From Escherichia phage vB_EcoM_FB, in the sequence record MT682711.1: a stretch of 64,000 nucleotides of DNA. One strand, 5' to 3'. Below the pieces are notes generated by a model. The model was not told where the DNA came from. It did not search any database and was given only the letters and a program-made list of their open reading frames with translations. Shown here piece after piece: positions 3,477 to 30,348 of the stretch. The translations under genes were made by a program, and so were the position numbers. Position 1 is the stretch's first letter. Each line of letters begins with the position of its first letter.

Positions 3477-5459
3477 ATGTCTTTATTATCACCGGGCATT
3501 GAGCTCAAAGAAACGTCCGTACAGAGTACTGTCGTTCGTAACGCAACGGGTCGTGCAGCGCTGGTTGGTAAATTCCAGTGGGGCCCTGCTTTCCAGGTAA
3601 CTCAGATTACTAATGAAGTTGAACTGGTCGACTTATTTGGAGGTCCTAATAACGAAGTTGCCGATTACTTCATGTCAGGTATGAACTTCCTCCAGTATGG
3701 TAACGACCTTCGTACTGTTCGTGTTGTTAACCGCGAATTCGCTAAAAACGCGTCTCCGGTAGCAGGTAACGTCCAAACCACTATTACTACTGCAGGTTCT
3801 AACTATGCGGTAGGCGATAAAATTAATATCAAATATAACCAGACTGTTGTTGAATCTGAAGGTCGTGTAACTTCGGTTGATACAGACGGTAAAATTCTAT
3901 CAGTGTTTATTCCTACCGGCAAGATTATTTCTTATGCTCGTTCTGTTAACCAGTATCCGAACCTAGGCCCTGCGTGGACTGCTGAAGCTACTTCTGCCTC
4001 TTCCGGTGTTTCTGGTACTATTACCGTCGGTAAAATCGTAACCGATTCCGGTATTCTTTTGACCGAAGCAGAGAACAGTGAAGAAGCTATTACTTCCCTA
4101 GAATTCCAAGCATCTCTTAAACAGTTTGGTATGCCTGGCGTGGTCGCTCTTTATCCTGGTGAAATTGGCAGCACCTTAGAAGTTGAAATTGTTTCTAAAG
4201 CGGCTTATGACGCTGGTTCTACTAAAATGTTGGATATTTATCCAAATGGCGGTACTCGTGCTTCTGTAGCTAAAGCGGTATTCAACTACGGTCCTCAGTC
4301 CGATAACCAGTATGCTATTATTGTTCGTCGTGATGGTGCAATCGTAGAATCCGTCGTACTTTCTACCAAAGAAGGTGAAAAAGACGTTTACGGTAATAAC
4401 ATTTATCTCGATGACTATTTCGCTAAAGGTACTTCTAACTATATTTTTGCTACCTCTTTGAACTGGCCTAAAGGCTTCAGTGGTATCATTAATCTTATGG
4501 GTGGTGTATCTGCTAACGATCAGGTTACTGCGAGTGATTTGATGCAGGGTTGGGATTTGTTTGCCGACCGTGAAGCACTCCATATTAACCTTTTGATTGC
4601 TGGTGCCGTTGCCGGTGAAGGTGATGAAGTTGCTTCTACCGTCCAGAAACACGTTGTTAGTATTGCTGATGAACGTCAGGATTGCTTGGCATTTATTTCT
4701 CCTCCTAAAGGACTGTTGGTTAACGTTCCATTGACTCGTGCAGTAGATAATCTTATCGACTGGCGTACCGGTGCAGGTACTTTCGATACCAACAACATGA
4801 ACATTAGCACCACTTATGCTGCTATTGATGGTAACTATAAATATCAGTATGACAAATATAATGACGTAAACCGTTGGGTGCCTCTGGCCGCTGATATGGC
4901 TGGTTTGTGTGCACGTACTGATGATGTTTCTCAGCCTTGGATGTCTCCGGCAGGTTATAACCGTGGCCAGATTCTTAACGTTCTGAAATTGGCAATTGAA
5001 CCACGTCAAGCACAACGTGACCGCATGTACCAGGAAGCTATTAACCCAGTTGTTGGTTTTGCTGGTGGCGATGGTTTCGTATTGTTTGGTGATAAGACTG
5101 CAACCAAAGTTCCATCTCCGATGGACCACATTAACGTTCGCCGTCTGTTCAACATGCTTAAGAAAAATATCGGTGATGCCTCTAAATATAAACTGTTTGA
5201 ATTGAACGACAACTTCACTCGTTCAAGCTTCCGTATGGAAGTTTCTCAGTACTTAGATGGTATTAAGGCACTTGGTGGGATTTATGAAGGACGTGTGGTT
5301 TGTGATACTACAGTGAACACCCCTGCGGTTATCGACCGTAACGAGTTTATTGCTAATATCTACGTTAAACCGGCCCGTTCTATTAACTACATCACGTTGA
5401 ACTTCGTTGCAACGAGCACTGGTGCTGATTTTGATGAATTGATTGGACCTTTAGTATAA
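3477..5459 (+). CDS. 18: tail sheath protein gp18
   Basis: 660 aa; matches my recollection of T4 gp18 in sequence and gene order. Confidence 0.95.
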   Translation: MSLLSPGIELKETSVQSTVVRNATGRAALVGKFQWGPAFQVTQITNEVELVDLFGGPNNEVADYFMSGMNFLQYGNDLRTVRVVNREFAKNASPVAGNVQTTITTAGSNYAVGDKINIKYNQTVVESEGRVTSVDTDGKILSVFIPTGKIISYARSVNQYPNLGPAWTAEATSASSGVSGTITVGKIVTDSGILLTEAENSEEAITSLEFQASLKQFGMPGVVALYPGEIGSTLEVEIVSKAAYDAGSTKMLDIYPNGGTRASVAKAVFNYGPQSDNQYAIIVRRDGAIVESVVLSTKEGEKDVYGNNIYLDDYFAKGTSNYIFATSLNWPKGFSGIINLMGGVSANDQVTASDLMQGWDLFADREALHINLLIAGAVAGEGDEVASTVQKHVVSIADERQDCLAFISPPKGLLVNVPLTRAVDNLIDWRTGAGTFDTNNMNISTTYAAIDGNYKYQYDKYNDVNRWVPLAADMAGLCARTDDVSQPWMSPAGYNRGQILNVLKLAIEPRQAQRDRMYQEAINPVVGFAGGDGFVLFGDKTATKVPSPMDHINVRRLFNMLKKNIGDASKYKLFELNDNFTRSSFRMEVSQYLDGIKALGGIYEGRVVCDTTVNTPAVIDRNEFIANIYVKPARSINYITLNFVATSTGADFDELIGPLV

Positions 5460-5584
5460 TCTATTATCCCAGGCTGTAATATAAAGAACCTAAAACCATT
5501 ATACCATGAGTTTGGTTACAGCGTACATCACGCAGAATTGCGCCTGGGGTTGATTATTCTTTAGGAATATGATTTATCAACTGT

Positions 5585-5592
5585 TATAAATA
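5585..5592 (+). promoter_or_regulatory. T4-type late promoter TATAAATA (gene 19)
   Basis: Exact TATAAATA 53 nt upstream of gene 19 ATG. Confidence 0.65.
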
Positions 5593-5644
5593 AATTAATC
5601 AGAACGTTCCTGGTGTGTCCAGGAACCGACTTAAGAGGCATCCC

Positions 5645-6136
5645 ATGGAGTTGACAGATATCACTCGTGCATTTGAGTCAGGTGACTTTGCACGCCCTAA
5701 CCTTTTCGAAGTGGAAATTCCATTTCTTGGTAAAAACTTTAGCTTTAAATGTAAAGCAGCACCAATGCCTGCTGGCATTGTAGAAAAAGTACCGGTTGGC
5801 TACATGAACCGTAAAATTAACGTAGCTGGTGACCGTACGTTTGATGATTGGACAATTACCATTTATAACGATGATGCACATGACACCCGTCAAGCAATTG
5901 TTGATTGGCAGAATCTCTGTCATGGTATGACCAATGAAATTACCGGTGCAGCACCTGCAGAATATAAGAAACAAGCAGTAGTTCGCCAGTTCCATCGTGA
6001 CGGCAAGACTGTGACCAAAGAAGTTACAATTTACGGCTTATGGCCTACTAACGTTGGTGAAGTCCAGATGGATTGGGACAGCAACAACGAGGTAGAAACT
6101 TTCGAATCTACGTTCGCTATCGATTGGTGGGAATGA
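5645..6136 (+). CDS. 19: tail tube protein gp19
   Basis: Start re-set to ATG 5645 (AAGAGG SD); 163 aa, same length as T4 gp19; ITRAFESGDFARPNLF conserved; track ORF starts at an upstream GTG. Confidence 0.95.
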   Translation: MELTDITRAFESGDFARPNLFEVEIPFLGKNFSFKCKAAPMPAGIVEKVPVGYMNRKINVAGDRTFDDWTITIYNDDAHDTRQAIVDWQNLCHGMTNEITGAAPAEYKKQAVVRQFHRDGKTVTKEVTIYGLWPTNVGEVQMDWDSNNEVETFESTFAIDWWE

Positions 6137-6193: not shown

Positions 6194-7768
6194 ATGGCAA
6201 ACTTTAATACAATATTAAGTTTTCTTAAGCCATGGGCTAATGAAGACGAAAAAGAATATAAACAACAAATTAATAACAATTTAGAGTCTGTCACCGCACC
6301 TAAGCTTGATGATGGCGCTCGCGAAATTGAGACACAAGAGCAAAATATTCCTTATAATGCTCTTATGCAACAGATGTTTGGTAGTAATGAGCCTGAAGTT
6401 AAAAATACCAGGGAACTTATTGATACCTACCGTAATTTAATGAACAACTATGAAGTCGACAACGCCGTACAGGAAATTGTGTCTGACGCTATTGTCTATG
6501 AGGATGATAAAGAAGTAGTTGCATTGAATTTAGACGGGACAGAATTTAGTCAAGCAATTAAAGATAAAATCTTGGCCGAATTCAGTGAAGTTTTAAACCT
6601 TTTAAATTTCCAACGTAAAGGTACTGACCATTTCCAACGCTGGTATGTAGACTCAAGAATTTTCTTTCATAAAATTATAAACCCTAAAAAAATGAAAGAT
6701 GGCGTACAAGAGCTTCGTCGCTTAGACCCACGCCAAGTCCAATATATTCGTGAAATCGTTACACGTATGGAAGATGGCGTTAAAGTTGTAGACGGATATC
6801 GCGAGTTTTTCGTTTATGATACAGGCCATGAAAGTTATTGCGCTGATGGACGCATTTATTCAGCCGGGACTAAAGTTAAAATTCCTCGTGCTGCAGTGGT
6901 TTATGCTCATTCTGGATTATTAGATTGTTGTGGTAAAAACATCATTGGCTATTTGCAACGTGCTATTAAGCCTGCAAACCAGCTTAAATTGATGGAAGAC
7001 GCAATGGTCATCTACCGTATTACACGTGCTCCCGACCGTCGTGTGTTTTATATCGATACAGGTAATATGCCTTCACGTAAGGCTGCAGCACAAATGCAAC
7101 ATATCATGAACACGATGAAAAACCGTGTGGTGTATGATGCTTCGACAGGTAAAATTAAAAACCAACAACACAATATGTCCATGACTGAAGACTATTGGTT
7201 GCAACGTCGTGATGGTAAAGCGGTAACAGAAGTTGATACAATGCCAGGTGCTACTGGTATGAGTGATATGGATGACGTTCTTTATTTCCGCACAGCACTT
7301 TACCGTGCGTTGCGTGTTCCTGAATCACGTATCCCTAGCGAGTCTAATTCTGGTGTTATGTTTGATGCCGGTACAGCAATCACTCGTGACGAATTAAAAT
7401 TCTCTAAATGGATTCGTCAACTACAAAACAAATTTGAAGAAATTTTCCTAGACCCGTTAAAAACAAACCTCATTCTTAAAAAGATTATTACAGAAGATGA
7501 GTGGGAAAAGGAAATAAATAATATTAAAGTTACGTTTAACCGTGATAGCTATTTCAGTGAAATGAAAGATGCTGAAATCATGGAACGCAGAATCAATATG
7601 CTAACGATGGCTGAACCATTTATTGGTAAGTATATTTCACATCAAACGGCTATGAAAGATTTCCTCCAAATGACCGACGAAGAAATTAATCAAGAAGCTA
7701 AGCAAATTGAAGAAGAGTCTAAAGAGGCTCGTTTCCAAAACCCAGATGAAGAAGAAGAGGATTTCTAA
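6194..7768 (+). CDS. 20: portal vertex protein gp20
   Basis: 524 aa, same length as T4 gp20; position after gene 19. Confidence 0.95.
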
Positions 7769-8013
7769 TGGAAGATTTAATCGAAGCTATTAAATCAAAC
7801 GACCTCGTAGCAGTTCGTAAAGCAGCAGCCCCGCTTATCGAATCTCGAGTAACCGCTTTGATTGAAGCCCGTAAAGCAGAAATTGCTCGCTCCGTTATGA
7901 TTGAAGGCGAAGAAGCTGACGAAGATGACGAAGACGACGAAAAATCCGATAAAGCAGATAAGAAAGACAAAAAAGAATCTGACGATGCGGATGATGACGA
8001 GGACGACGAATAA
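7768..8013 (+). CDS. 67: prohead core protein gp67
   Basis: 81 aa with highly acidic C-terminus; ATG overlaps gene 20 stop; T4 order 20-67-68-21. Confidence 0.8.
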
Positions 8014-9943: not shown

Positions 9944-11503
9944 ATGAAAAAGAATGCATTAGTTCAAAAATGGTCCGCTCTGCTGGAAAACGAAGCTCTT
10001 CCTGAAATCGTTGGTGCTTCTAAACAAGCTATCATCGCTAAAATTTTCGAAAACCAGGAACAAGACATCCTGACTGCCCCGGAATACCGTGATGAAAAAA
10101 TCTCTGAAGCATTTGGTTCTTTCCTGACCGAAGCTGAAATTGGTGGTGACCACGGTTATGATGCTACCAATATCGCAGCTGGCCAGACTTCTGGTGCTGT
10201 AACTCAGATTGGGCCGGCAGTAATGGGTATGGTTCGTCGTGCTATTCCTCATCTGATTGCTTTTGATATTTGTGGTGTTCAGCCTCTGAATAACCCTACC
10301 GGCCAGGTATTTGCCCTGCGCGCAGTTTATGGTAAAGACCCTGTCGCTGCTGGCGCTAAAGAAGCTTTCCACCCGATGTATTCTCCGGACTCTATGTTCT
10401 CTGGTCAGGGTGCTGCTGAATCTTTCGAAGCACTGGCTGCAAGCAAAGTTCTGGAAGTTGGTAAAATTTATTCTCACTTCTTCGAAGCTACCGGTGCTGC
10501 ACACTTCCAGGCTGTTGAAGCCGTAACCGTTGATGCTGCTGCTACCGATGCCGCTAAACTGGATGCTGCTGTTACCGCTTTGATTGAAGCTGGTAAGTTG
10601 GCTGAATTGGCTGAAGGTATGGCTACTTCTATCGCTGAACTTCAGGAAGGCTTTAACGGTTCTACCGATAACCCGTGGAACGAAATGGGCTTCCGCATCG
10701 ACAAACAAGTTATCGAAGCTAAATCCCGTCAGCTGAAAGCAAGCTACTCTATCGAACTGGCACAGGACCTTCGTGCAGTACACGGTATGGATGCAGATGC
10801 TGAACTGTCCGGTATCCTTGCTACCGAAATTATGCTCGAAATCAACCGTGAAGTTATCGATTGGATTAACTACTCTGCACAGGTTGGTAAATCTGGTATG
10901 ACCAACACCGTTGGCGCTAAAGCTGGTGTGTTTGACTTCCAGGACCCGATTGATATCCGTGGTGCTCGTTGGGCCGGTGAGAGCTTTAAAGCCCTTCTGT
11001 TCCAGATTGATAAAGAAGCAGCCGAAATCGCTCGTCAGACCGGTCGTGGTGCTGGTAACTTCATCATCGCTTCCCGTAACGTAGTTAACGTACTGGCTGC
11101 AGTTGATACTTCTGTAAGTTATGCAGCTCAAGGTCTGGGTCAAGGTTTCAACGTTGACACAACCAAAGCAGTATTTGCCGGTGTTCTTGGTGGTAAATAT
11201 CGCGTTTACATCGACCAGTATGCACGTTCCGATTACTTCACCATCGGTTATAAAGGCGCTAACGAAATGGACGCAGGTATCTACTATGCTCCGTACGTTG
11301 CACTGACCCCGCTGCGTGGTTCCGATCCGAAGAACTTCCAACCGGTAATGGGCTTCAAAACTCGTTACGGTATCGGTATCAACCCGTTCGCTGACCCTGC
11401 TGCTCAGGCTCCTACCAAACGTATCCAGAATGGTATGCCTGACATCGTTAACAGCCTTGGTCTGAATGGTTACTTCCGTCGCGTATATGTTAAAGGTATC
11501 TAA
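9944..11503 (+). CDS. 23: major capsid protein gp23
   Basis: 519 aa; T4 gp23 is about 521 aa; position after gene 22. Confidence 0.95.
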   Translation: MKKNALVQKWSALLENEALPEIVGASKQAIIAKIFENQEQDILTAPEYRDEKISEAFGSFLTEAEIGGDHGYDATNIAAGQTSGAVTQIGPAVMGMVRRAIPHLIAFDICGVQPLNNPTGQVFALRAVYGKDPVAAGAKEAFHPMYSPDSMFSGQGAAESFEALAASKVLEVGKIYSHFFEATGAAHFQAVEAVTVDAAATDAAKLDAAVTALIEAGKLAELAEGMATSIAELQEGFNGSTDNPWNEMGFRIDKQVIEAKSRQLKASYSIELAQDLRAVHGMDADAELSGILATEIMLEINREVIDWINYSAQVGKSGMTNTVGAKAGVFDFQDPIDIRGARWAGESFKALLFQIDKEAAEIARQTGRGAGNFIIASRNVVNVLAAVDTSVSYAAQGLGQGFNVDTTKAVFAGVLGGKYRVYIDQYARSDYFTIGYKGANEMDAGIYYAPYVALTPLRGSDPKNFQPVMGFKTRYGIGINPFADPAAQAPTKRIQNGMPDIVNSLGLNGYFRRVYVKGI

Positions 11504-11519
11504 GATATAACCTTATTAT

Positions 11520-11545
11520 GGGAGACTTCGGTCTCCCATTCTTGT
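11520..11545 (+). terminator. rho-independent terminator after gene 23
   Basis: GGGAGAC-TTCG-GTCTCCC hairpin followed by ATTCTTGTTTCTG. Confidence 0.7.
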
Positions 11546-11552
11546 TTCTGTA

Positions 11553-11819
11553 TTATGCAATCTTAACTCGGCGGTTGATGATATCACGGAAGTCAATACG
11601 ATTTTCTTGGATTTTCAGCCAGTTACCAGATTTGTCTTTGGTATGGGTAGAGTATTCACCGTTCCACCAGAAGTCGGTAGCATAAGCCATGGCTTCGTAT
11701 TTCTTAACTAAGGCATTCACTGCATTACCATTAGGATTGTTACCGAATTTTTCTACCAGAGCTTTGATGTCTTTATCAAGAGCGGAAAGAGTAGTACGAA
11801 TAAAGTTTAACTTGTTCAT
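11553..11819 (-). CDS. hypothetical small early protein (88 aa) in the slot T4 uses for segD
   Basis: ATG at 11819 preceded by GAGGAG SD and an early promoter; track ORF extends 5 codons further to 11834; no recognizable motif. Confidence 0.5.
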   Translation of the reverse strand: MNKLNFIRTTLSALDKDIKALVEKFGNNPNGNAVNALVKKYEAMAYATDFWWNGEYSTHTKDKSGNWLKIQENRIDFRDIINRRVKIA

Positions 11820-11848
11820 TTTTAATCTCCTCATGTTTTGATAGGTCT

Positions 11849-11884: not shown

Positions 11885-11892
11885 TATAAATA
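11885..11892 (+). promoter_or_regulatory. T4-type late promoter TATAAATA (gene 24)
   Basis: Exact TATAAATA 29 nt upstream of gene 24 ATG. Confidence 0.65.
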
Positions 11893-11920: not shown

Positions 11921-13204
11921 ATGGCAAAGATTAACGAATTACTGCGCGAGTCAACAACTACTTCCAGCAACTCATTGGGTCGCCCTAATCTTGTTGCTTT
12001 GACCCGTGCTACAACCAAATTGATTTACCGTGATATTATCGCCGAACAACGTACTAGCCAGCCTATTGCTGCACTGTATGGTGTCAAATATCTTACCCCT
12101 GATAATGAATTTAGTTTCCAGACAGGTGCCTCTTATGGTGGTGAAGTTGGTTCTAAAGACCGTGAAACTATCCCAGAACTCACAGATAAGGCCCAGGCGA
12201 TTGCTCAGGGTGAATATTTCAAGTACCAGAATGTGGTTTATAAGGCTCTTAAAGCAAGCCCACTCGCGTCCACTAGCGCCACAGAATTGGCTGATGCTCT
12301 TCAAGAAGGTTTAGTGTCATTAACATGTCGTCTGGTTCCTGATGCTGCCCATACCACTAAATTTGAAGCGAGTGATGTAGAAATCTCTGATGCTGTATTC
12401 CAGGTTAATAAATGGAATGCTCCGGTTAAGACCCGTAAATTGAAGACGGCTTTGACTGTAGAATTAGCGCAGGATATGGAATCAAATGGCTTTGACGCGC
12501 CGGCGTTCTTAGAAGACCTCTTGGCTACAGTAATGGCAGATGAAATTAATAAAGACGTTCTGCAATCTCTAATAACCGTATCCAAACGTTATAAAGTTAC
12601 TGGTGTATCTGATAACGGCATCATCGATTTGTCTTATGACAGTGCTCCTGAATCTGCACGTAAACTTTATGAACTCGTTTGTGAGATGAATTCTGAAATC
12701 CAGAAAACTACTTCTTATTCTGGCACGTTTGTTGTGGCTTCAAGTCGTGTGGCTGCAATGCTTGCAGGTTCTGGCTGGTTAAAACATAAACCCGAAGATA
12801 ATAATTGGCTTCCGGAAACTGCATACGGATATTTGTTGAATGGTCTGCCTCTGTTTTGTGACGTTAACAGTCCATTAGATTATGTTACCGTTGGTGTTAA
12901 AGAGAATTACGGCGGTAATGAAGTTGTCGGTTCTATTTTCTACGCTCCCTATACCGAAGGCTTAGATTTAGATGACCAAGAACACGTCGGTGCTTATAAG
13001 GTTATTGTTGACCCGGATTCATTACAACCTTCTATTTCTCTGATGGTTCGTTATGCACTATCAGCTAACCCGTACACCGTGGCTAAAGACGATAAAGAAG
13101 CTCGTGTTATCGATGCAACCAATATGGATTTAATGGCTGGACAGAGCAATATGTCTTATCTGGTTGGCGTTAAACTTCCGGCAATTATTTACGAGGCTGA
13201 TTAA
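11921..13204 (+). CDS. 24: capsid vertex protein gp24
   Basis: 427 aa; N-terminus MAKINELLRESTTT... matches my recollection of T4 gp24; gp23-like fold family. Confidence 0.9.
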   Translation: MAKINELLRESTTTSSNSLGRPNLVALTRATTKLIYRDIIAEQRTSQPIAALYGVKYLTPDNEFSFQTGASYGGEVGSKDRETIPELTDKAQAIAQGEYFKYQNVVYKALKASPLASTSATELADALQEGLVSLTCRLVPDAAHTTKFEASDVEISDAVFQVNKWNAPVKTRKLKTALTVELAQDMESNGFDAPAFLEDLLATVMADEINKDVLQSLITVSKRYKVTGVSDNGIIDLSYDSAPESARKLYELVCEMNSEIQKTTSYSGTFVVASSRVAAMLAGSGWLKHKPEDNNWLPETAYGYLLNGLPLFCDVNSPLDYVTVGVKENYGGNEVVGSIFYAPYTEGLDLDDQEHVGAYKVIVDPDSLQPSISLMVRYALSANPYTVAKDDKEARVIDATNMDLMAGQSNMSYLVGVKLPAIIYEAD

Positions 13205-14484
13205 TGTCTAAGATTGTAGACCTAATTAAAGAATCCACATTGACGGCTGCCAGCTCGGTTGGCCGTCCTGCTCTTCTTTCATACACCCAAGCAACTAATA
13301 AACGAATCTTTAAAGCCCTAGTTGCTGAACAAAAAACAAATCAACCGGTTGCTGCTCTGTATGGGGTACGTGTACTGAATCCTGACGACAAAATGACTTA
13401 TCTTGGTGGAGCAACATTTGCGGGCCAGATTGGTATGACGGAACGTGAAAATATTCCAGAATTTACTGATTCATCTACAGCTTATGCGGTCGGTGATATG
13501 TTCCAGTTTGAAAGCGTAGTGTTTAAAGTTCTAGAAGCATCTCCTTTCGCCGGAACCACAGAAACCAACCTCAGCGAAGTTATTTCTGAAGCAGTGGCAG
13601 CCGGCCATATCCGTATGGTGTCGGATGCTGCTATTACTTCTAAATTTGAACAAGGCCATCCTGAAATTGCTGAAACCGGATTCCGTATCGACAAATGGCA
13701 ATCTGAAGTTAAATCACGTAAACTGAAAACTTCATTGACAGTCGAATTAGCCCAAGACCTAGAATCTAACGGGTTTAATGCTCCTAATTTCGTTGAAAAT
13801 CTGCTAGGCATTCAAATGGCAGAAGAAATTAATAAGGATGTATTACAGTCATTAATTACCGTGAGCTCTCGTTTTAAAGTCCAGGGTGTTTCTGAAAAGG
13901 GTGTATTAGACCTTACCAACCCTCGCTACGATAATGCCCAGGACCGTGCTCGCACATTATATTATTATATGTGTGAGATGAACTCTGCCGTCCAACGACA
14001 GACTTCTTTTGCCGGGACTTATGCAGTAGCTAGTTCTCGTTGTGCTGCTATTCTCGCCGCCTCTGGTTGGGTTGAGAAAAAGGAAGACCAGGACGAATTG
14101 GCTTATGGTATATTAAAGAATGGCCTACCACTTTATGCTGATATGAATAGTCTATGTGATTATGTTATTGTTGGTGTAAATGCCCAGATGGGTGAAGGAC
14201 AGACGGTCGCATCTTTATATTATGCGCCTTATACGGAAGGTTTGAATGTGGTTGACGAAGAAGGTGATACTTCAGTTGGTGAATTTAAGGTTATTGTTGA
14301 CCCGGAAAGCTTACAACCTACAGTAGCATTGCTTGCTCGTTATGCATTGACTGCAAACCCTTATACCGTCGCTAAGGACGATAAAGAAGCCCGCATTATT
14401 GATGGTTCTGATATGGACAAAATGGCTAATCAAAGTCAATTGAGTTCTTATCTCGGCGTAAAATTACCGCCTTTAGAAAAATAA
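13204..14484 (+). CDS. second gp24-like capsid vertex protein (divergent tandem paralog)
   Basis: 426 aa; shared blocks with the first copy (SRKLKT.LTVELAQD.ESNGF.AP.F.E.LL, EINKDVLQSLITVS, ANPYTVAKDDKEAR); start overlaps stop of first copy. Confidence 0.85.
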   Translation: MSKIVDLIKESTLTAASSVGRPALLSYTQATNKRIFKALVAEQKTNQPVAALYGVRVLNPDDKMTYLGGATFAGQIGMTERENIPEFTDSSTAYAVGDMFQFESVVFKVLEASPFAGTTETNLSEVISEAVAAGHIRMVSDAAITSKFEQGHPEIAETGFRIDKWQSEVKSRKLKTSLTVELAQDLESNGFNAPNFVENLLGIQMAEEINKDVLQSLITVSSRFKVQGVSEKGVLDLTNPRYDNAQDRARTLYYYMCEMNSAVQRQTSFAGTYAVASSRCAAILAASGWVEKKEDQDELAYGILKNGLPLYADMNSLCDYVIVGVNAQMGEGQTVASLYYAPYTEGLNVVDEEGDTSVGEFKVIVDPESLQPTVALLARYALTANPYTVAKDDKEARIIDGSDMDKMANQSQLSSYLGVKLPPLEK

Positions 14485-14504
14485 AAGGGACCTTACGGTC
14501 CCTT
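14485..14504. terminator. bidirectional terminator hairpin between the second gene 24 copy and rnlB
   Basis: AAGGGACC-TTAC-GGTCCCTT flanked by A-run and T-run; lies between convergent genes. Confidence 0.65.
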
Positions 14505-14510
14505 TATCGT

Positions 14511-15518
14511 TTATTTGGATACTAGTTCAACCCATACATGTCTTAATGTTTCTTTTACGCACTCAACGAGCTGCTTTTTAACTTCAACGGGATTTTCCGC
14601 ATCAGTTAATTCCAATTCTTCACGGGCGGCTTCTTCAAGGATATCCTGGACTGTCAAGCCCATCACCTTTCCGAAATCCTTCGGCGATACTTCGCCAATC
14701 TTACTGATGACATTGTTAATGCGGTTAACAGTCACATAATCGGTGAATTGCCACATCAAATCCATATCGTCTTGGGACAATACCACTGCAACTTTAATAG
14801 GCTTATCAGACTTTTTCTTCTCGCTGAATTTAGAGTTCTTACATTTAATCGCCACACGATTTCCGTTTGGAAGCCAGGTAGGAACATCAGGTTTCAATAC
14901 AAAGCCTTCAGCCGTGAATACCTTACCTTCTACCTTAGGAATAAAATCGGTTGAGTTTGCAATAGTTAAGCCTGCGTTATCCACTGCAAAATTATAATCA
15001 GGAACAACTGAATCAAAATCATTAGGAAGTTTAATAAGGTCTTCAAAGCTACCAGTGGCCAGACATGGAGCTACCTTAAACTTATGGATAATACAGAAGG
15101 CTTCCATCAATGTATCGGTTAGAACAGATTCTGAGCCATCTTCTTTAGTAACTCGGATATCGAACACATAAAAGTCTTTATCGCCGTAGTCCACATTCTT
15201 CTGGATGCCTGTCCCAGCGAATTCGCCATAAATCTGGTATGACTGATAATTAATCGATTCAATTAGATGTTGAACTGATTTAATAGAATCAGCGTAGTTC
15301 TTAAGTACAATTTCATAACCATAGAAATCTTCAGCAGGGAGGATAGGGCCAGTGCGCTTGGCGCATGTGACTGCGTCACGTTCTATGATTAAACTAAAGT
15401 TGGTTCCATGAATCTTCTCACGTGCTACCCATTCACCACCAGTCAAACCGTTAGTACGGAGTTTTTCGATAAACTTACTGTTGTAGTGGTTTTCGAGACT
15501 GCTATATTTCTTGAACAT
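14511..15518 (-). CDS. rnlB: RNA ligase 2 (Rnl2)
   Basis: 335 aa; [20 protein letters not shown]... with adenylation motif KIHGTN; strong match to my recollection of T4 Rnl2. Confidence 0.9.
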
Positions 15519-15945: not shown

Positions 15946-16794
15946 TTAATAAATGTAATCGTATATAATACCAGCTTCTAAAGCGGTGCGATGAATAATT
16001 CGACCGTTACGAGATTCTTGTACATCAACCTCTGAATAGTCGGTAATCATTTTTTGAAGTGTATATCGGTGCAAATAATACGGGCTATCCGGGTCATCTG
16101 TTTTCCAGTCTTTGCCTTCAAGAGTCATTTTCTGGATTTCATCCATAACCCACCAACCAACCCAAATATATGCTGAATTACGAACAGGGAGTGGATGAAC
16201 GTAAGGTAATTCGCCATCCGGAACCGGTGCGACTTTAGCCGTGACTGTTACATTACCGGTTTTTGTGACAGTCGCCGGGTTATAATCAGTCGCCGAAACC
16301 GCAACAGAAACTTCAATAACCTGTGAACCTTCAGTGCTTGTATCGATTGCTAGAGTATCCGTGGTGCCAACTACAGGAGAACCGTCTTTCTTCCAAGAAT
16401 AGGCAAAAGTAGCACCAGCAGGAGCGCCGACCACATCCGCTTTAAAAGAAGCTGGAGTGCCTTCCGGAACATTAATCGAAGCTGGGGTTAATGTCACAGA
16501 AACACCGGAAATGGTTTTATTCTGGATAGTTAAAGTTGTTTCGGCTTCAGCTGTTTCTGGTTCGCCGTCCGCCGGTGTAGTTGTTGCAACAACTTTAATA
16601 GTCTTGCTGCCTGCCGGGCCAACAGCAACATAATCCATTGCAGCAGTCACAGAAGATTGAGGAACGCCATCAACGGTCCAGACAAATGATTCGGTACCTT
16701 CAGCTGCAGCACCGGAACCGGTCGCAGTGAAATTGGTTGTTGCTCCAATAACGGCCGTAGCCGCCAAAGGAGCCATATCTACGGTATAAGCCAT
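15946..16794 (-). CDS. hoc: Hoc outer capsid decoration protein (shortened, fewer Ig-like repeats)
   Basis: 282 aa against about 376 in T4; C-terminal capsid-binding domain strongly conserved (LPYVHPLPVRNSAYIWVGWWVMDEIQKMT...); Ig-like repeats upstream. Confidence 0.85.
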   Translation of the reverse strand: MAYTVDMAPLAATAVIGATTNFTATGSGAAAEGTESFVWTVDGVPQSSVTAAMDYVAVGPAGSKTIKVVATTTPADGEPETAEAETTLTIQNKTISGVSVTLTPASINVPEGTPASFKADVVGAPAGATFAYSWKKDGSPVVGTTDTLAIDTSTEGSQVIEVSVAVSATDYNPATVTKTGNVTVTAKVAPVPDGELPYVHPLPVRNSAYIWVGWWVMDEIQKMTLEGKDWKTDDPDSPYYLHRYTLQKMITDYSEVDVQESRNGRIIHRTALEAGIIYDYIY

Positions 16795-17494: not shown

Positions 17495-17502
17495 TATAAA
17501 TA
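17495..17502 (+). promoter_or_regulatory. T4-type late promoter TATAAATA (uvsW)
   Basis: Exact TATAAATA 29 nt upstream of uvsW ATG. Confidence 0.6.
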
Positions 17503-17508
17503 TAACTA

Positions 17509-17516
17509 TATTTATA
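17509..17516 (-). promoter_or_regulatory. T4-type late promoter TATAAATA on minus strand (inh)
   Basis: Reverse complement is exact TATAAATA, about 35 nt upstream of inh ATG. Confidence 0.55.
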
Positions 17517-21712: not shown

Positions 21713-21724
21713 TATTTATAAATA
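21713..21724. promoter_or_regulatory. palindromic bidirectional late promoter TATTTATAAATA between genes 26 and 51
   Basis: TATAAATA readable on both strands (plus 21717-21724, minus 21713-21720); divergent late genes either side. Confidence 0.6.
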
Positions 21725-28297: not shown

Positions 28298-30348
28298 TAC
28301 CCTTGTACAAATTTATATTGGAGAGCGTCGATATCTATACAAGAAGCTAACAAGCCAAGACCTCTGTCTGAGTTCTTTTTCTTCTCATTAGAAACAAATG
28401 AATCAAAAGAAAGCTCACCACCATCTTTATAGACAACGAGTTCTCCTGTTTCCATTAGGGCATCACCGTCGTATACTACAGCTTCATTAAGTTCATCTGC
28501 AGTCATTACTTCGGCTTGAATAAACTTATTGTTAGAACGAGTAGTCCCGTTGTTATATGAGGCATCTGTAATTTTATTGATTTTAACCATCAACCCTCTA
28601 GGAAGAATTACTTCCATTTCGTTAGAAGGGGCTAGGTCTCCACCAGGTAAAACGACATTTACTTTATTAGCACCAGTAATGGCCCAACCGATACCTACTA
28701 AGGTATCTTTAACTGAATATACCAAGCCTTCATCAGATTTATCTAAAGCAACATCTCGACGCTTTTCATCAGGTAAAACACCAACACCAGAATCGGTCAT
28801 CCATGTACCAAAAATATTTGGATAAAGTGATGTTGATACAAAGTTCCTGAAATAGAATACTTTGTTTTTAACCATAGCCAGGTAAATATCAGGAATCATT
28901 CGTTGAGAACGATAAAGCGTGATACCTTCCGGAAGTTGTTCACCATTTTCAAAAGCAGAATCTAAGTTATTGATAGCTTTTTCTATCTCTTCATTAGTCA
29001 AAATACTGGTTCTTGTATTAGGGTCGCGGATTCCTAAAAGAACATTATTCATATCTTCGTAACCGGAGCCAACGTATTCACGAATACCACGCTTCTGTGC
29101 TGGTGTATAACGAGATACGTCTTTATTTTCTACAATAGAATGTAATTGCCAACCCGCGGTAAGAGCATAAACACGCAGTTCGCGCTGAATAATTTTGGTC
29201 TTTATAGCATTCCAAGAATTTTCGGCTAACTCTATGGCTTCGTGATAACCTAAGTGAGAATGCCGGGCCATTAGTTTTTGAAGCCAAGGGCCTTTATATT
29301 CTTCGATGACATCATCAACCACTGAAGCATAATTTTCTAGAGCTTTTACTGAAGTCACATTTAATCCATGTAATTTCTCAAAAGCTCTCATTTTTATGTC
29401 GGTATTAATTTCTTCCATTTTATCTTCTGGAATAAGAAGGTTGTCTTTAAACGACATACCGCCGGTATTAGCACTAATGGTATTTTCTAAAGCCAAGAAA
29501 GAATTAGAAATAACCTTTATTTCATTTGCTTCCGGCATTAAAGGACCTGTAGCAGGTTTATTCAATTCGACAGCATTAGACTCAAATTTCTTAAACATTG
29601 GAGTTTCGAAACGAGATGATTCTAAGGATTGCGACATAGCAATAGCACGACGTGAAATCTTAGTCTTGGTAATGACAGCCTTATCAGTACGTTTCTCTTC
29701 AACTTTAGCTATACTTGCCGAGACGGCTTCGGCCTTACTTACGGCCTGGCCAGTTTCCTTAGAAACATAAACTTCGCCAACTTTAGACTCAACCTTAGTA
29801 TAAAGCTCGGCATCAATTTCAGGCATACCCTTAATATCTTCAATATTAGTACCACGACGTACTAAAAGAACATAGGTATGTTTTCCGGTGAATTGGTACA
29901 TGGCATCAACAACTTTAAACTTACCACCAGTACGAGCCATAGCTAAACGAGCTAATACACGCTGAACAGTAGGACCCTTACCTTTCATTTTCTTGGTAGG
30001 GAACCGGAAAAGAACTGCATCCATTTTAAGTTTGTTTACTTGTTCGTATACAGTATCAAAAATGGTATTCAGCGTACCAAGTGGGTCAGAACCTAACCCA
30101 CCTTTCAACTCGGCTGGGCTACCCTTAGCAGACAAACTCATCAAAATAACATGAACATATTTGTCTCCGGGCTTAACCATTTTAATAGCGTCTCCTTGAG
30201 ACGCATAAGATACCATACGAGCAACCAGGTTATCATTACCTGGCGCTTTAATAGAGAAAATCTGTGGGATACCGGAACCTGGTTTAAGATTTATTACTGG
30301 ATAGTTTTTATCGGAATCACTATCAAAAACCTCGTTTAAATTTTCCAT
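28297..30348 (-). CDS. alt: Alt-like ADP-ribosyltransferase, paralog A
   Basis: 683 aa (T4 Alt about 682); R-S-E ART motifs (YRSQRM, FRNFVSTS, NEMEVILPRGL); strong match to my recollection of T4 Alt. Confidence 0.85.
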   Translation of the reverse strand: MENLNEVFDSDSDKNYPVINLKPGSGIPQIFSIKAPGNDNLVARMVSYASQGDAIKMVKPGDKYVHVILMSLSAKGSPAELKGGLGSDPLGTLNTIFDTVYEQVNKLKMDAVLFRFPTKKMKGKGPTVQRVLARLAMARTGGKFKVVDAMYQFTGKHTYVLLVRRGTNIEDIKGMPEIDAELYTKVESKVGEVYVSKETGQAVSKAEAVSASIAKVEEKRTDKAVITKTKISRRAIAMSQSLESSRFETPMFKKFESNAVELNKPATGPLMPEANEIKVISNSFLALENTISANTGGMSFKDNLLIPEDKMEEINTDIKMRAFEKLHGLNVTSVKALENYASVVDDVIEEYKGPWLQKLMARHSHLGYHEAIELAENSWNAIKTKIIQRELRVYALTAGWQLHSIVENKDVSRYTPAQKRGIREYVGSGYEDMNNVLLGIRDPNTRTSILTNEEIEKAINNLDSAFENGEQLPEGITLYRSQRMIPDIYLAMVKNKVFYFRNFVSTSLYPNIFGTWMTDSGVGVLPDEKRRDVALDKSDEGLVYSVKDTLVGIGWAITGANKVNVVLPGGDLAPSNEMEVILPRGLMVKINKITDASYNNGTTRSNNKFIQAEVMTADELNEAVVYDGDALMETGELVVYKDGGELSFDSFVSNEKKKNSDRGLGLLASCIDIDALQYKFVQG

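Follow-up and report, generated by a model that had tools for sequence, protein, structure and literature searches.

A conserved pair of gp24-type capsid vertex genes downstream of gene 23 in Escherichia phage vB_EcoM_FB and its T4-like relatives

We analysed a stretch of 64,000 nucleotides from Escherichia phage vB_EcoM_FB (MT682711.1), referred to here as the window. Two genes for gp24-type proteins, 24a and 24b, lie in it directly downstream of gene 23 within the late head-gene cluster, and relatives share this gene order. The ORF list confirmed the two frames of 427 and 426 aa at exactly the coordinates given in the original prediction. The genes and signals of the locus are as follows.

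9944..11503, plus strand: gene 23, major capsid protein, the hexamer-forming paralogue (ORF of 519 aa; Pfam PF07068, 410 bits)
11518..11539, plus strand: hairpin terminator 3' of gene 23 (9-bp stem with 5 GC pairs, then TCTTGTTTCT)
11553..11834, minus strand: conserved hypothetical ORF of 93 aa between genes 23 and 24a (PHROG 6003, unknown function, E = 8e-50)
11885..11892, plus strand: T4-type late promoter consensus TATAAATA, 29 nt upstream of the 24a start codon
11921..13204, plus strand: gene 24a, capsid vertex protein precursor, T4 gp24 orthologue (ORF of 427 aa)
13193..13196, plus strand: Shine-Dalgarno sequence GAGG for 24b, within the last 24a codons (spacer of 7 nt)
13202..13206, plus strand: TAATG stop/start overlap (24a stop TAA at 13202-13204, 24b start ATG at 13204-13206)
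13204..14484, plus strand: gene 24b, second gp24-type paralogue (ORF of 426 aa)
13264..13317, plus strand: 24b-specific N-arm signature, aa 21-38, RPALLSYTQATNKRIFKA; its counterpart in 24a and all single-copy gp24 is RPNLVALTRATTKLIY.D
14484..14505, both strands: bidirectional hairpin terminator common to 24b and the convergent rnlB (AAAGGGACCTTACGGTCCCTTT)
14511..15518, minus strand: rnlB (RNA ligase 2; ORF of 335 aa), the downstream boundary as in T4, annotated as rnlB in Bp7, JS98 and others

The 93-aa ORF had no Pfam match; its homologues are annotated in JS98 (orf173) and VR7 (ORF190c). It stands outside the gp24 pair, and the slot between genes 23 and 24 is variable: T4, TG1, IME08 and IME341 have homing endonucleases there.

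The proteins encoded by 24a and 24b were aligned by BLASTP over their full length with 234 of 428 positions identical (55%; 77% positives; E = 2e-175), in agreement with the earlier estimate by eye that the second copy is a divergent paralogue with about half of its positions identical. The PF07068 profile matched 24a with 330 bits (residues 19-417) and 24b with 322 bits (residues 19-419; cut-off 24.4), and both proteins fall into PHROG 138. The match to the solved T4 gp24 (PDB 1YUE) reached 660 bits for 24a and 500 bits for 24b and was colinear in both cases over residues 1-423/424 (1-423 for 24b), so that the N-arm, the I-linkers, the I domain and the P and A domains were all covered. The matches of the two copies to gp23 chains amounted to only 45-48 bits, and each copy was only 25-28% identical to the gp23 of the window, which itself is 84.7% identical to T4 gp23. 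These comparisons show that 24a and 24b are full-length gp24-type proteins with the HK97 fold plus insertion domain. The sequence match to PDB 1YUE leaves no doubt about the fold of 24b; an AlphaFold2 model of this protein, computed with an alignment of the three window paralogues, had a mean pLDDT of 31.7 and was unusable.

The first copy shares 69.7% identity, the 10-residue propeptide and the genomic slot with T4 gp24 (PDB 1YUE, 5VF3, 7VS5). Its orthology to T4 gp24 is clear, although the identity is looser than the close match stated in the original prediction. The second copy is 56% identical to T4 gp24 and agrees with it in length, domain order and cleavage motif. T4 indeed has a single gene 24, located between segD and rnlB, whereas the window has two such genes, of which 24b carries a conserved N-arm of its own.

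The consensus TATAAATA at 11885-11892 is the sole match from gene 23 through the end of 24b (16 matches in the whole window vs 6.4 expected). We infer from the T4 consensus that it is a late promoter and that both genes would be transcribed from it. A GAGG or GAG was present at the same place in the junction of JS98, VR7, S16, CIP9 and Kos305, and the two genes overlapped or were separated by 0-1 nt in all seven annotated pair-carrying loci examined. The TAATG overlap suggests that translation of 24b is coupled to that of 24a. To summarize, 24a and 24b form a conserved two-gene operon with a predicted late promoter.

In T4, precisely the 10-residue propeptide of gp24 is removed, whereas gp23 has a propeptide of 65 residues and also an N-fist. 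Both copies in the window have the short type ending in (L/I)-x-E, and neither has the 65-residue propeptide or N-fist of gp23. Residues 1-10 of 24a (nt 11921-11950) end in L-R-E followed by ST, and those of 24b (nt 13204-13233) end in I-K-E followed by ST. The pattern I-x-E then ST occupied residues 8-12 in 8/8 24b sequences, the position of L-R-E/ST in T4 gp24. Judged by sequence, both copies keep the predicted cleavage motif of the gp21 prohead protease.

The differences between the two copies are concentrated in the N-arm. Eight of the 15 fixed differences lie within residues 8-57 (Fisher p = 0.0015), and among doubly invariant columns a fixed difference was found in 8/28 within residues 1-59 vs 7/122 elsewhere (p = 0.0015). 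Since outgroups show the 24a state 55 times and the 24b state 13 times, 24b is the derived form. In T4 gp24, contacts to the neighbouring hexamer are made by aa 11-20 and those to the adjacent penton subunit (gp24*) by aa 22-29, aa 26-29 forming a beta-pair with its I-linker. Residues 155-427 of 24b (P and A domains) are 62-63% identical to 24a and T4 gp24, and the A-domain core at the penton centre (residues 171-230) is conserved between the copies at 0.6-0.85. Compared with T4 gp24, 24b is longer by 3-4 residues after 240 and by 2-3 acidic residues in the 348-359 loop, and shorter by four residues at 295-298. It has the short 293-299 loop and the KLPPL-K C-terminus in common with Ac42-type gp24.

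At the DNA level, the window is 99.8% identical to the Escherichia phages Bp7, E33 and QL01 (Dhakavirus), and the pair is 93% identical to that of JS10 and 86% to that of JS98. True orthologues of 24b, each covering at least 80% of the gene, were found in 116 phage records. Six genera are represented: Dhakavirus, Gaprivervirus, Gelderlandvirus, Kanagawavirus (in part), Marfavirus and Roskildevirus. This survey does not support a reading of the pair as a duplication peculiar to this genome. Gene 24a was directly upstream of 24b in 24 of 24 loci checked; for IMG/VR, this held in 17/17 of the 24b-carrying loci. The window carries the same cassette, that is, 24a then 24b with an overlap or a gap of at most 1 nt, between gene 23 and rnlB. 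A 24b-type gene as the sole gp24 was not found in any phage or viral contig searched.

The pair is already known as a genomic observation, with annotations in public records that go back years, so that 24b is a known conserved paralogue of this phage lineage. In GenBank, the genes are named 24a/24b in JS98, JS10 and IME08, 24(1)/24(2) in vB_EcoM-VR7, and capsid vertex protein I/II in VR5, VR20, VR25, VR26 and CGG4-1. JS98, JS10, VR7, VR5 and others have the same genes as the window, in the same order, with the same tight junction and the same flanks (gene 23 and rnlB); some relatives lack the small ORF found here between genes 23 and 24a, or have a segD homing endonuclease in its place. The accessible literature does not discuss a second gene 24, and our literature search returned no virion proteomics or structure for a pair-carrying phage.

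Within Kanagawavirus, CIP9 and Kos305 carry the pair and PEi20 has 24a only; the 24a-type genes of PEi20 and CIP9 are only 70% identical. Since PEi20 manages with 24a alone, 24b is not universally required. An extension of the blastn match hinted that the PEi20 gene might be a 24a/24b deletion chimera. This was rejected, as 27 of 28 diagnostic sites were of the 24a type, and no window of the PEi20 gene was closer to 24b. In 11 single-copy loci, searches for remnants of a lost second copy retrieved only gp24 and gp23 matches, and no gp23 residues were found to co-vary with the presence of 24b.

Both genes are under strong purifying selection, with dN/dS of 0.03-0.13 for 24a and 0.02-0.10 for 24b at dS near saturation. 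There was no sign of recent gene conversion between the copies, whose best DNA stretches are 70-73% identical. The RSCU of 24b correlated with that of gp23 at 0.60 vs 0.79 for 24a, a difference only weak, and we set codon usage aside as a guide to relative expression.

The framing of the pair as a tandem duplication was not borne out by the trees, in which the copies were never closest relatives: with three distance models and 200 bootstraps, an exclusive sister clade of 24a and 24b was recovered in 0%. The 24b clade is monophyletic (99%), and its branching mirrors that of the 24a clade. The basal position of 24b is not explained by accelerated evolution, as the two copies are equally distant from three outgroup sets (distances to gp23 of 0.738 and 0.736). 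We conclude from these comparisons that 24b represents a separate old lineage that forms a fixed-order cassette with 24a in at least six genera. The gp23 tree was discarded as a proxy for the species tree because its resolution was poor and it contradicted the gp24 trees.

How 24b came to stand behind 24a can be explained in several ways. A recent tandem duplication private to this phage or species, giving redundant vertex genes of which one is drifting, would fit the adjacency, common orientation and near-equal length of the genes; it is refuted by the distribution of 24b over six genera, the bootstrap result, the saturated dS with no DNA stretch above 73% identity, and the purifying selection on both copies. 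The origin to which we give nearly even odds is that 24b is a xenologue: the gp24 of a deep-branching, unsampled T4-like lineage would have been inserted behind gene 24, and recombination of the head module would then have carried the pair from genus to genus. This is supported by the grouping of 24a with the gp24 of T4, Moon and Karamvirus (myPSH1140), with 24b outside (97%; 54-84% in a second analysis), by the identity of 24b to JD18 gp24, which is higher than to 24a (62.5% vs 54.5%), and by the features that 24b shares with Ac42-type gp24. The head module is also mosaic, with S16 grouping with Moon (100%) and Kos305 with Dhakavirus (99%) in the gp23 tree, and the one-gene and two-gene members of Kanagawavirus with their dissimilar 24a-type genes fit such a transfer. 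However, no donor lineage is known, as 24b was never found as the sole gp24, and its basal placement is weakly supported (with Ac42 23-30%, with JD18 12-26%). An ancient duplication in place near the base of the Tevenvirinae, followed by several losses of 24b that would make the single gene 24 of T4 derived and reduced, is a more tentative possibility. It would account for the mirrored trees and the clock-like rates, and for Cronus, whose 24a falls outside T4-type gp24 and the main 24a clade (82%) and which yet has 24b; if the 24a tree tracks phage history, this pattern implies at least one loss on the T4 side. Against this, at least three independent clean losses would be needed (T4/Moon/Karamvirus, JD18, TG1, Kc304, PEi20), the 11 single-copy loci hold no remnant, and gp23 is unfit here as a species tree.

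As to function, it is most likely that 24a and 24b are both processed penton subunits. Our joint explanation, to which we assign a probability of about 0.6, is a two-gene late operon whose products are both cleaved pentons, with separate homopentamers expected. The single late promoter would drive 24a and 24b, with the TAATG overlap coupling translation of the second gene to that of the first. Both precursors would enter the prohead shell with their N-termini inward, the gp21 protease would cut 10 residues from each, and both proteins would end as penton subunits at the 11 non-portal vertices. In the most speculative step, 24a and 24b would form separate homopentamers and not random mixtures, which would give the capsid corners of two kinds. 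Homopentamers are expected because 24b has a conserved N-arm segment of its own at the place where the arm of T4 gp24 pairs with the adjacent penton subunit and rests on the neighbouring hexamer; this preference is predicted solely from the location of the substitutions.

Mixed or alternative pentamers, as originally suggested, are compatible with the evidence. Heteropentamers of 24a and 24b at every vertex, in place of two kinds of homopentamer, are in our view doubtful: co-transcription and translational coupling would supply both proteins at a fixed ratio, as is typical of one complex, and the A-domain core is well conserved between the copies, but a fixed 1:1 ratio is incompatible with five-fold symmetry, and the 24b-specific fixed changes in the pairing segment (aa 22-29) would favour like-with-like assembly. 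It is unlikely, though conceivable, that pentamers of 24a and of 24b are found at vertices of different symmetry class among the 11 non-portal ones, and that T4, with its one gene 24, has secondarily simplified a two-penton design that was ancestral. The classes in question are the apical vertex on the long axis and, where cap and midsection meet, two rings of five vertices each; since all 55 gp24* subunits of T4 are conformationally alike, these classes do not obviously need different proteins. We regard it as improbable that 24b is not a stable shell subunit at all and instead acts in assembly (such as vertex nucleation or triggering of the gp21 protease), as a surface or cementing decoration, or as a decoy for capsid-sensing host defence. 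Work on T4 suggests that attachment of gp24 triggers protease activation, and a paralogue could specialise in such a transient task; 24b is also dispensable in PEi20-like genomes, and its codon usage is less gp23-like than that of 24a. Against such roles, 24b retains every gp24 domain at full length, including the lattice-building P and A domains; T4's decoration proteins Soc and Hoc have unrelated folds. The purely decorative role raised in the original prediction is less probable, as 24b retains the complete fold of the shell proteins along with the propeptide cleavage motif.

The preferred reading, two penton proteins in one shell, has parallels in T4. The paralogy of gp23 and gp24, specialists for hexamers and pentamers, goes back to an old duplication of an HK97-fold shell gene, and the copies were kept as they took distinct places in the shell; by analogy, 24a and 24b may stem from a repeat of such a process. 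However, gp23 and gp24 are only ~20-28% identical and differ in propeptide length (65 vs 10 residues) and in the N-fist. Since 24a and 24b are 55% identical and have the same architecture, any division of labour between them would be subtler. In the bypass-24 mutants of T4, gp23 (N381S, A387T, K420R) fills the vertices. They show that the occupancy of vertices in this capsid type is flexible in evolution, with more than one related protein able to form a penton. Such mutants are laboratory products in which point changes in the hexamer protein make up for the missing gp24, whereas 24b is a natural second dedicated gene kept next to the first.

Large prolate capsids have their reference model in T4, which in the textbook view has one vertex protein. 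The T4 relatives that carry the pair include therapeutic candidates against E. coli, Salmonella, Klebsiella, Enterobacter and Erwinia. If both proteins are in the shell, these phages would represent a natural experiment in the diversification of pentons and the placement of different pentons, and the pair would be relevant to the use of their heads as display or vaccine scaffolds.

The two ORFs that follow gene 23, 24a and 24b, both encode proteins of the gp24 type, i.e., the capsid vertex (penton) protein, and the original prediction of their number, position and kind was borne out in every detail by the ORF list and by alignments. The locus is organized as follows (ORF lengths from the ORF list):

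9944..11503, + strand, gp23-like (major capsid protein) ORF, 519 aa
11518-11539, hairpin terminator
11553..11834, - strand, short ORF between genes 23 and 24a, 93 aa
11885-11892, putative late promoter matching the T4 consensus TATAAATA, 29 nt upstream of the 24a start
11921..13204, + strand, 24a, 427 aa
13204..14484, + strand, 24b, 426 aa
14484-14505, hairpin terminator
14511..15518, RNA ligase gene, convergent to 24b

Pfam family PF07068 spans both proteins end to end. Over their full length they share 55% identity and 77% similarity (E = 2e-175), and each is 25-28% identical to gp23 of the window. The T4 gp24 structure (PDB 1YUE) matched 24a with 660 bits and 24b with 500 bits, whereas gp23 chains reached only ~48 bits. 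A structure prediction for 24b had a pLDDT of 31.7, and the model was discarded. The G+C content of positions 10000-11500 (gene 23) is 0.47-0.49, compared with 0.38-0.44 in the flanking genes, including both gene-24 copies.

The match at 11885-11892 is the only T4 late-promoter consensus from gene 23 to the end of 24b. The stop codon of 24a overlaps the start codon of 24b (TAATG, 13202-13206), and a Shine-Dalgarno sequence, GAGG, lies within 24a, 7 nt upstream of the 24b start. An overlap or a gap of 0-1 nt was present at this junction in all seven fetched pair-carrying loci. We infer a single bicistronic late transcript on which translation of 24a and 24b would be coupled. Elsewhere in the window, TATAAATA occurs back to back between inh and uvsW, at 17495-17502 (+) and 17509-17516 (-), and overlaps itself on both strands at 21713-21724; these pairs may be divergent late promoters.

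The slot between genes 23 and 24 is variable: it holds segD in T4, IME08 and IME341 and a 1.5-kb homing endonuclease in TG1. The 93-aa ORF found here is a conserved hypothetical one (PHROG 6003) and has no Pfam match; S16, Marfa and Cronus do not have it. Phages dhaeg, dhabil and CLB_P2 match in two pieces with 91% coverage, and the 93-aa ORF is unannotated in them. Downstream of the gene pair, VR7 (6534-7817) and Cronus (4827-5840) carry a 'tail fiber protein' gene, whose product the VR7 record calls a collagen triple-helix repeat protein; the gene adjoins a Hoc-like head decoration gene, whereas the window has a conventional Hoc-like ORF instead (15946-16794, - strand).

The pair is an already recognized and annotated feature. 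The 3.1-kb region is 99.7-99.8% identical to that of Escherichia phages Bp7, vB_EcoM-E33 and QL01, 93% to JS10 and 86% to JS98, all of the genus Dhakavirus, and two vertex genes lie beneath the match in every annotated relative. They are named '24a' and '24b' in JS98, JS10 and IME08, '24(1)' and '24(2)' in VR7, and 'capsid vertex protein I/II' or 'head vertex protein I/II' in VR5, VR20, VR25, VR26, CGG4-1 and ZX14. The second copy is thus a well-known conserved paralog of the lineage, the very case that the original prediction had given as its refutation, and not a novelty. The accessible literature contained no report of proteomics, genetics or structure for a pair-carrying phage.

A tblastn census (E <= 1e-60) found gp24 homologues at 1,496 places in 1,378 phage records, hence about 118 records with two. 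At E <= 1e-175, a cut-off that shuts out every non-24b gene, a 24b orthologue was present in 116 records, covering at least 80% of 24b in all of them. In the fetched loci of six genera, Dhakavirus (JS98), Gaprivervirus (VR7), Gelderlandvirus (S16), Kanagawavirus (CIP9, Kosakonia 305), Marfavirus (Marfa) and Roskildevirus (Cronus), the genes stand in tandem with a constant order and a tight junction. In IMG/VR, 24a lies directly upstream of 24b in 17 of 17 contigs with 24b, and none of these has 24b without 24a. T4, JD18, TG1, Kc304, myPSH1140, Moon, Ac42, MP1, G37-3, RB43 and Aes508, among others, have one gp24 gene only. The taxonomy line of the Marfa record places Marfavirus directly under Caudoviricetes, outside Straboviridae; despite this, its head module (genes 22, 23, 24a, 24b, rnlB, hoc) is colinear with Tevenvirinae.

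Even inside one genus the presence of the pair varies, since the Kanagawavirus type phage PEi20 carries a single gene 24 (28676-29956), whereas CIP9 and Kosakonia 305 have two. The PEi20 gene is purely of the 24a type (27 of 28 diagnostic sites) and falls inside the main 24a clade (87% bootstrap), with only ~70% identity to 24a of CIP9 and Kosakonia 305. This suggests that the head-vertex cassette has been swapped by recombination.

Both genes have evidently long been retained as protein-coding genes. Between orthologues, dN/dS (Nei-Gojobori) was 0.03-0.13 for 24a and 0.02-0.10 for 24b, with synonymous sites at or near saturation. No DNA stretch is more than 73% identical between the two genes, which indicates that there was no recent gene conversion and leaves little substrate for recombinational deletion.

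Neighbour-joining analysis of 27 gp24 sequences with bootstrapping united the 24b genes in a single clade (99%), whose order (Cronus, Marfa, then Kanagawavirus, Gelderlandvirus and Dhakavirus plus Gaprivervirus) mirrors that of the 24a clade, showing that both genes co-diverged as a unit. The 24a proteins cluster with gp24 of T4, Moon and Karamvirus (97%), and 24b lies outside this cluster. In gp23-rooted trees, 24a and 24b never formed a clade of their own (0% of 200 bootstraps under three distance corrections). A long-branch artefact behind the position of 24b was ruled out by equal distances to gp23 (0.738 for 24a, 0.736 for 24b, 0.735 for T4-type gp24) and to distant gp24s. Moreover, 24b is 62.5% identical to gp24 of JD18 vs 54.5% to the adjacent 24a. 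The indel pattern is consistent with the gp24 tree: T4 and 24a have the longer form of loop 293-299, and 24b and Ac42-type gp24 share the short form as well as a KLPPL-K C-terminus. On these sequence comparisons, the 24a/24b split is older than the split between 24a and T4 gp24, so the tandem duplication of the original prediction is wrong as a recent local event; its claim of two genes of the gp24 type, of which one resembles that of T4, stands, but the pair is ancient, widespread and annotated.

The pair may go back to an ancient duplication followed by several losses, in which case the single copy of T4 would be derived, or 24b may be a xenologue acquired behind a resident gene 24. We prefer neither origin, since no donor carrying 24b only is known from the 116-record census or the IMG/VR contigs, the 11 single-copy loci contain no remnants of a second copy, and the gp23 tree is poorly resolved (S16 plus Moon 100%, Kosakonia 305 plus Dhakavirus 99%) and conflicts with both gp24 trees and with genus assignments. 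Head genes appear to have been exchanged between Tevenvirinae genera.

According to the T4 literature, residues 1-10 of gp24 are cut off by the prohead protease, residues 11-20 rest, after expansion, against the outside of a neighbouring gp23 hexamer, and the helix 22-29 unfolds, whereupon residues 26-29 form a beta-pair with the I-linker of the adjacent gp24* of the same pentamer. I-linker 1 comprises about residues 60-81, residues 143-154 are within I-linker 2, and 348-359 is a flexible loop. The cleavage motif is present at the T4 position as L-R-E/ST in 24a and I-x-E/ST in all eight 24b sequences; its retention is an argument for incorporation of 24b into the prohead shell as a subunit. 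When these eight sequences were compared with 11 of the 24a plus T4 group, 15 positions were fixed differently, eight of them in residues 8-57. Among doubly invariant columns, such differences occupy 8 of 28 in residues 1-59 vs 7 of 122 elsewhere (odds ratio 6.6, p = 0.0015). At the 15 sites, the state in single-copy outgroups is that of 24a in 55 cases and that of 24b in 13, indicating that 24b is derived and that the ancestral arm survives in 24a. The N-arm signature reads RPNLVALTRATTKLIY in 24a, as in every single-copy gp24 gene, and RPxLLSYTKATNKRIFK in 24b; it spans the stretch engaged in pairing with the next subunit of the penton. In addition, 24b has 3-4 extra residues after 240, lacks four at 295-298 and carries 2-3 additional acidic residues in the 348-359 loop. 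Both proteins vary most in the I-linker and I-domain region (60-154).

24b may instead act outside the shell, as an assembly factor, decoration or decoy, but this reading fits poorly with its fully conserved shell fold and cleavage site. Since the subunit-pairing segment is remodelled in 24b, the positions of the substitutions make two kinds of homopentamer more plausible than random mixtures, although all 55 gp24* subunits of T4 are conformationally alike, PEi20 manages with 24a alone, and gp23 has no residue that covaries with the presence of 24b. The most probable reading is that 24a and 24b, which would share the 11 vertices of the prolate head, are both processed penton subunits, with 24a as the conventional vertex protein and 24b as a second, specialized one.
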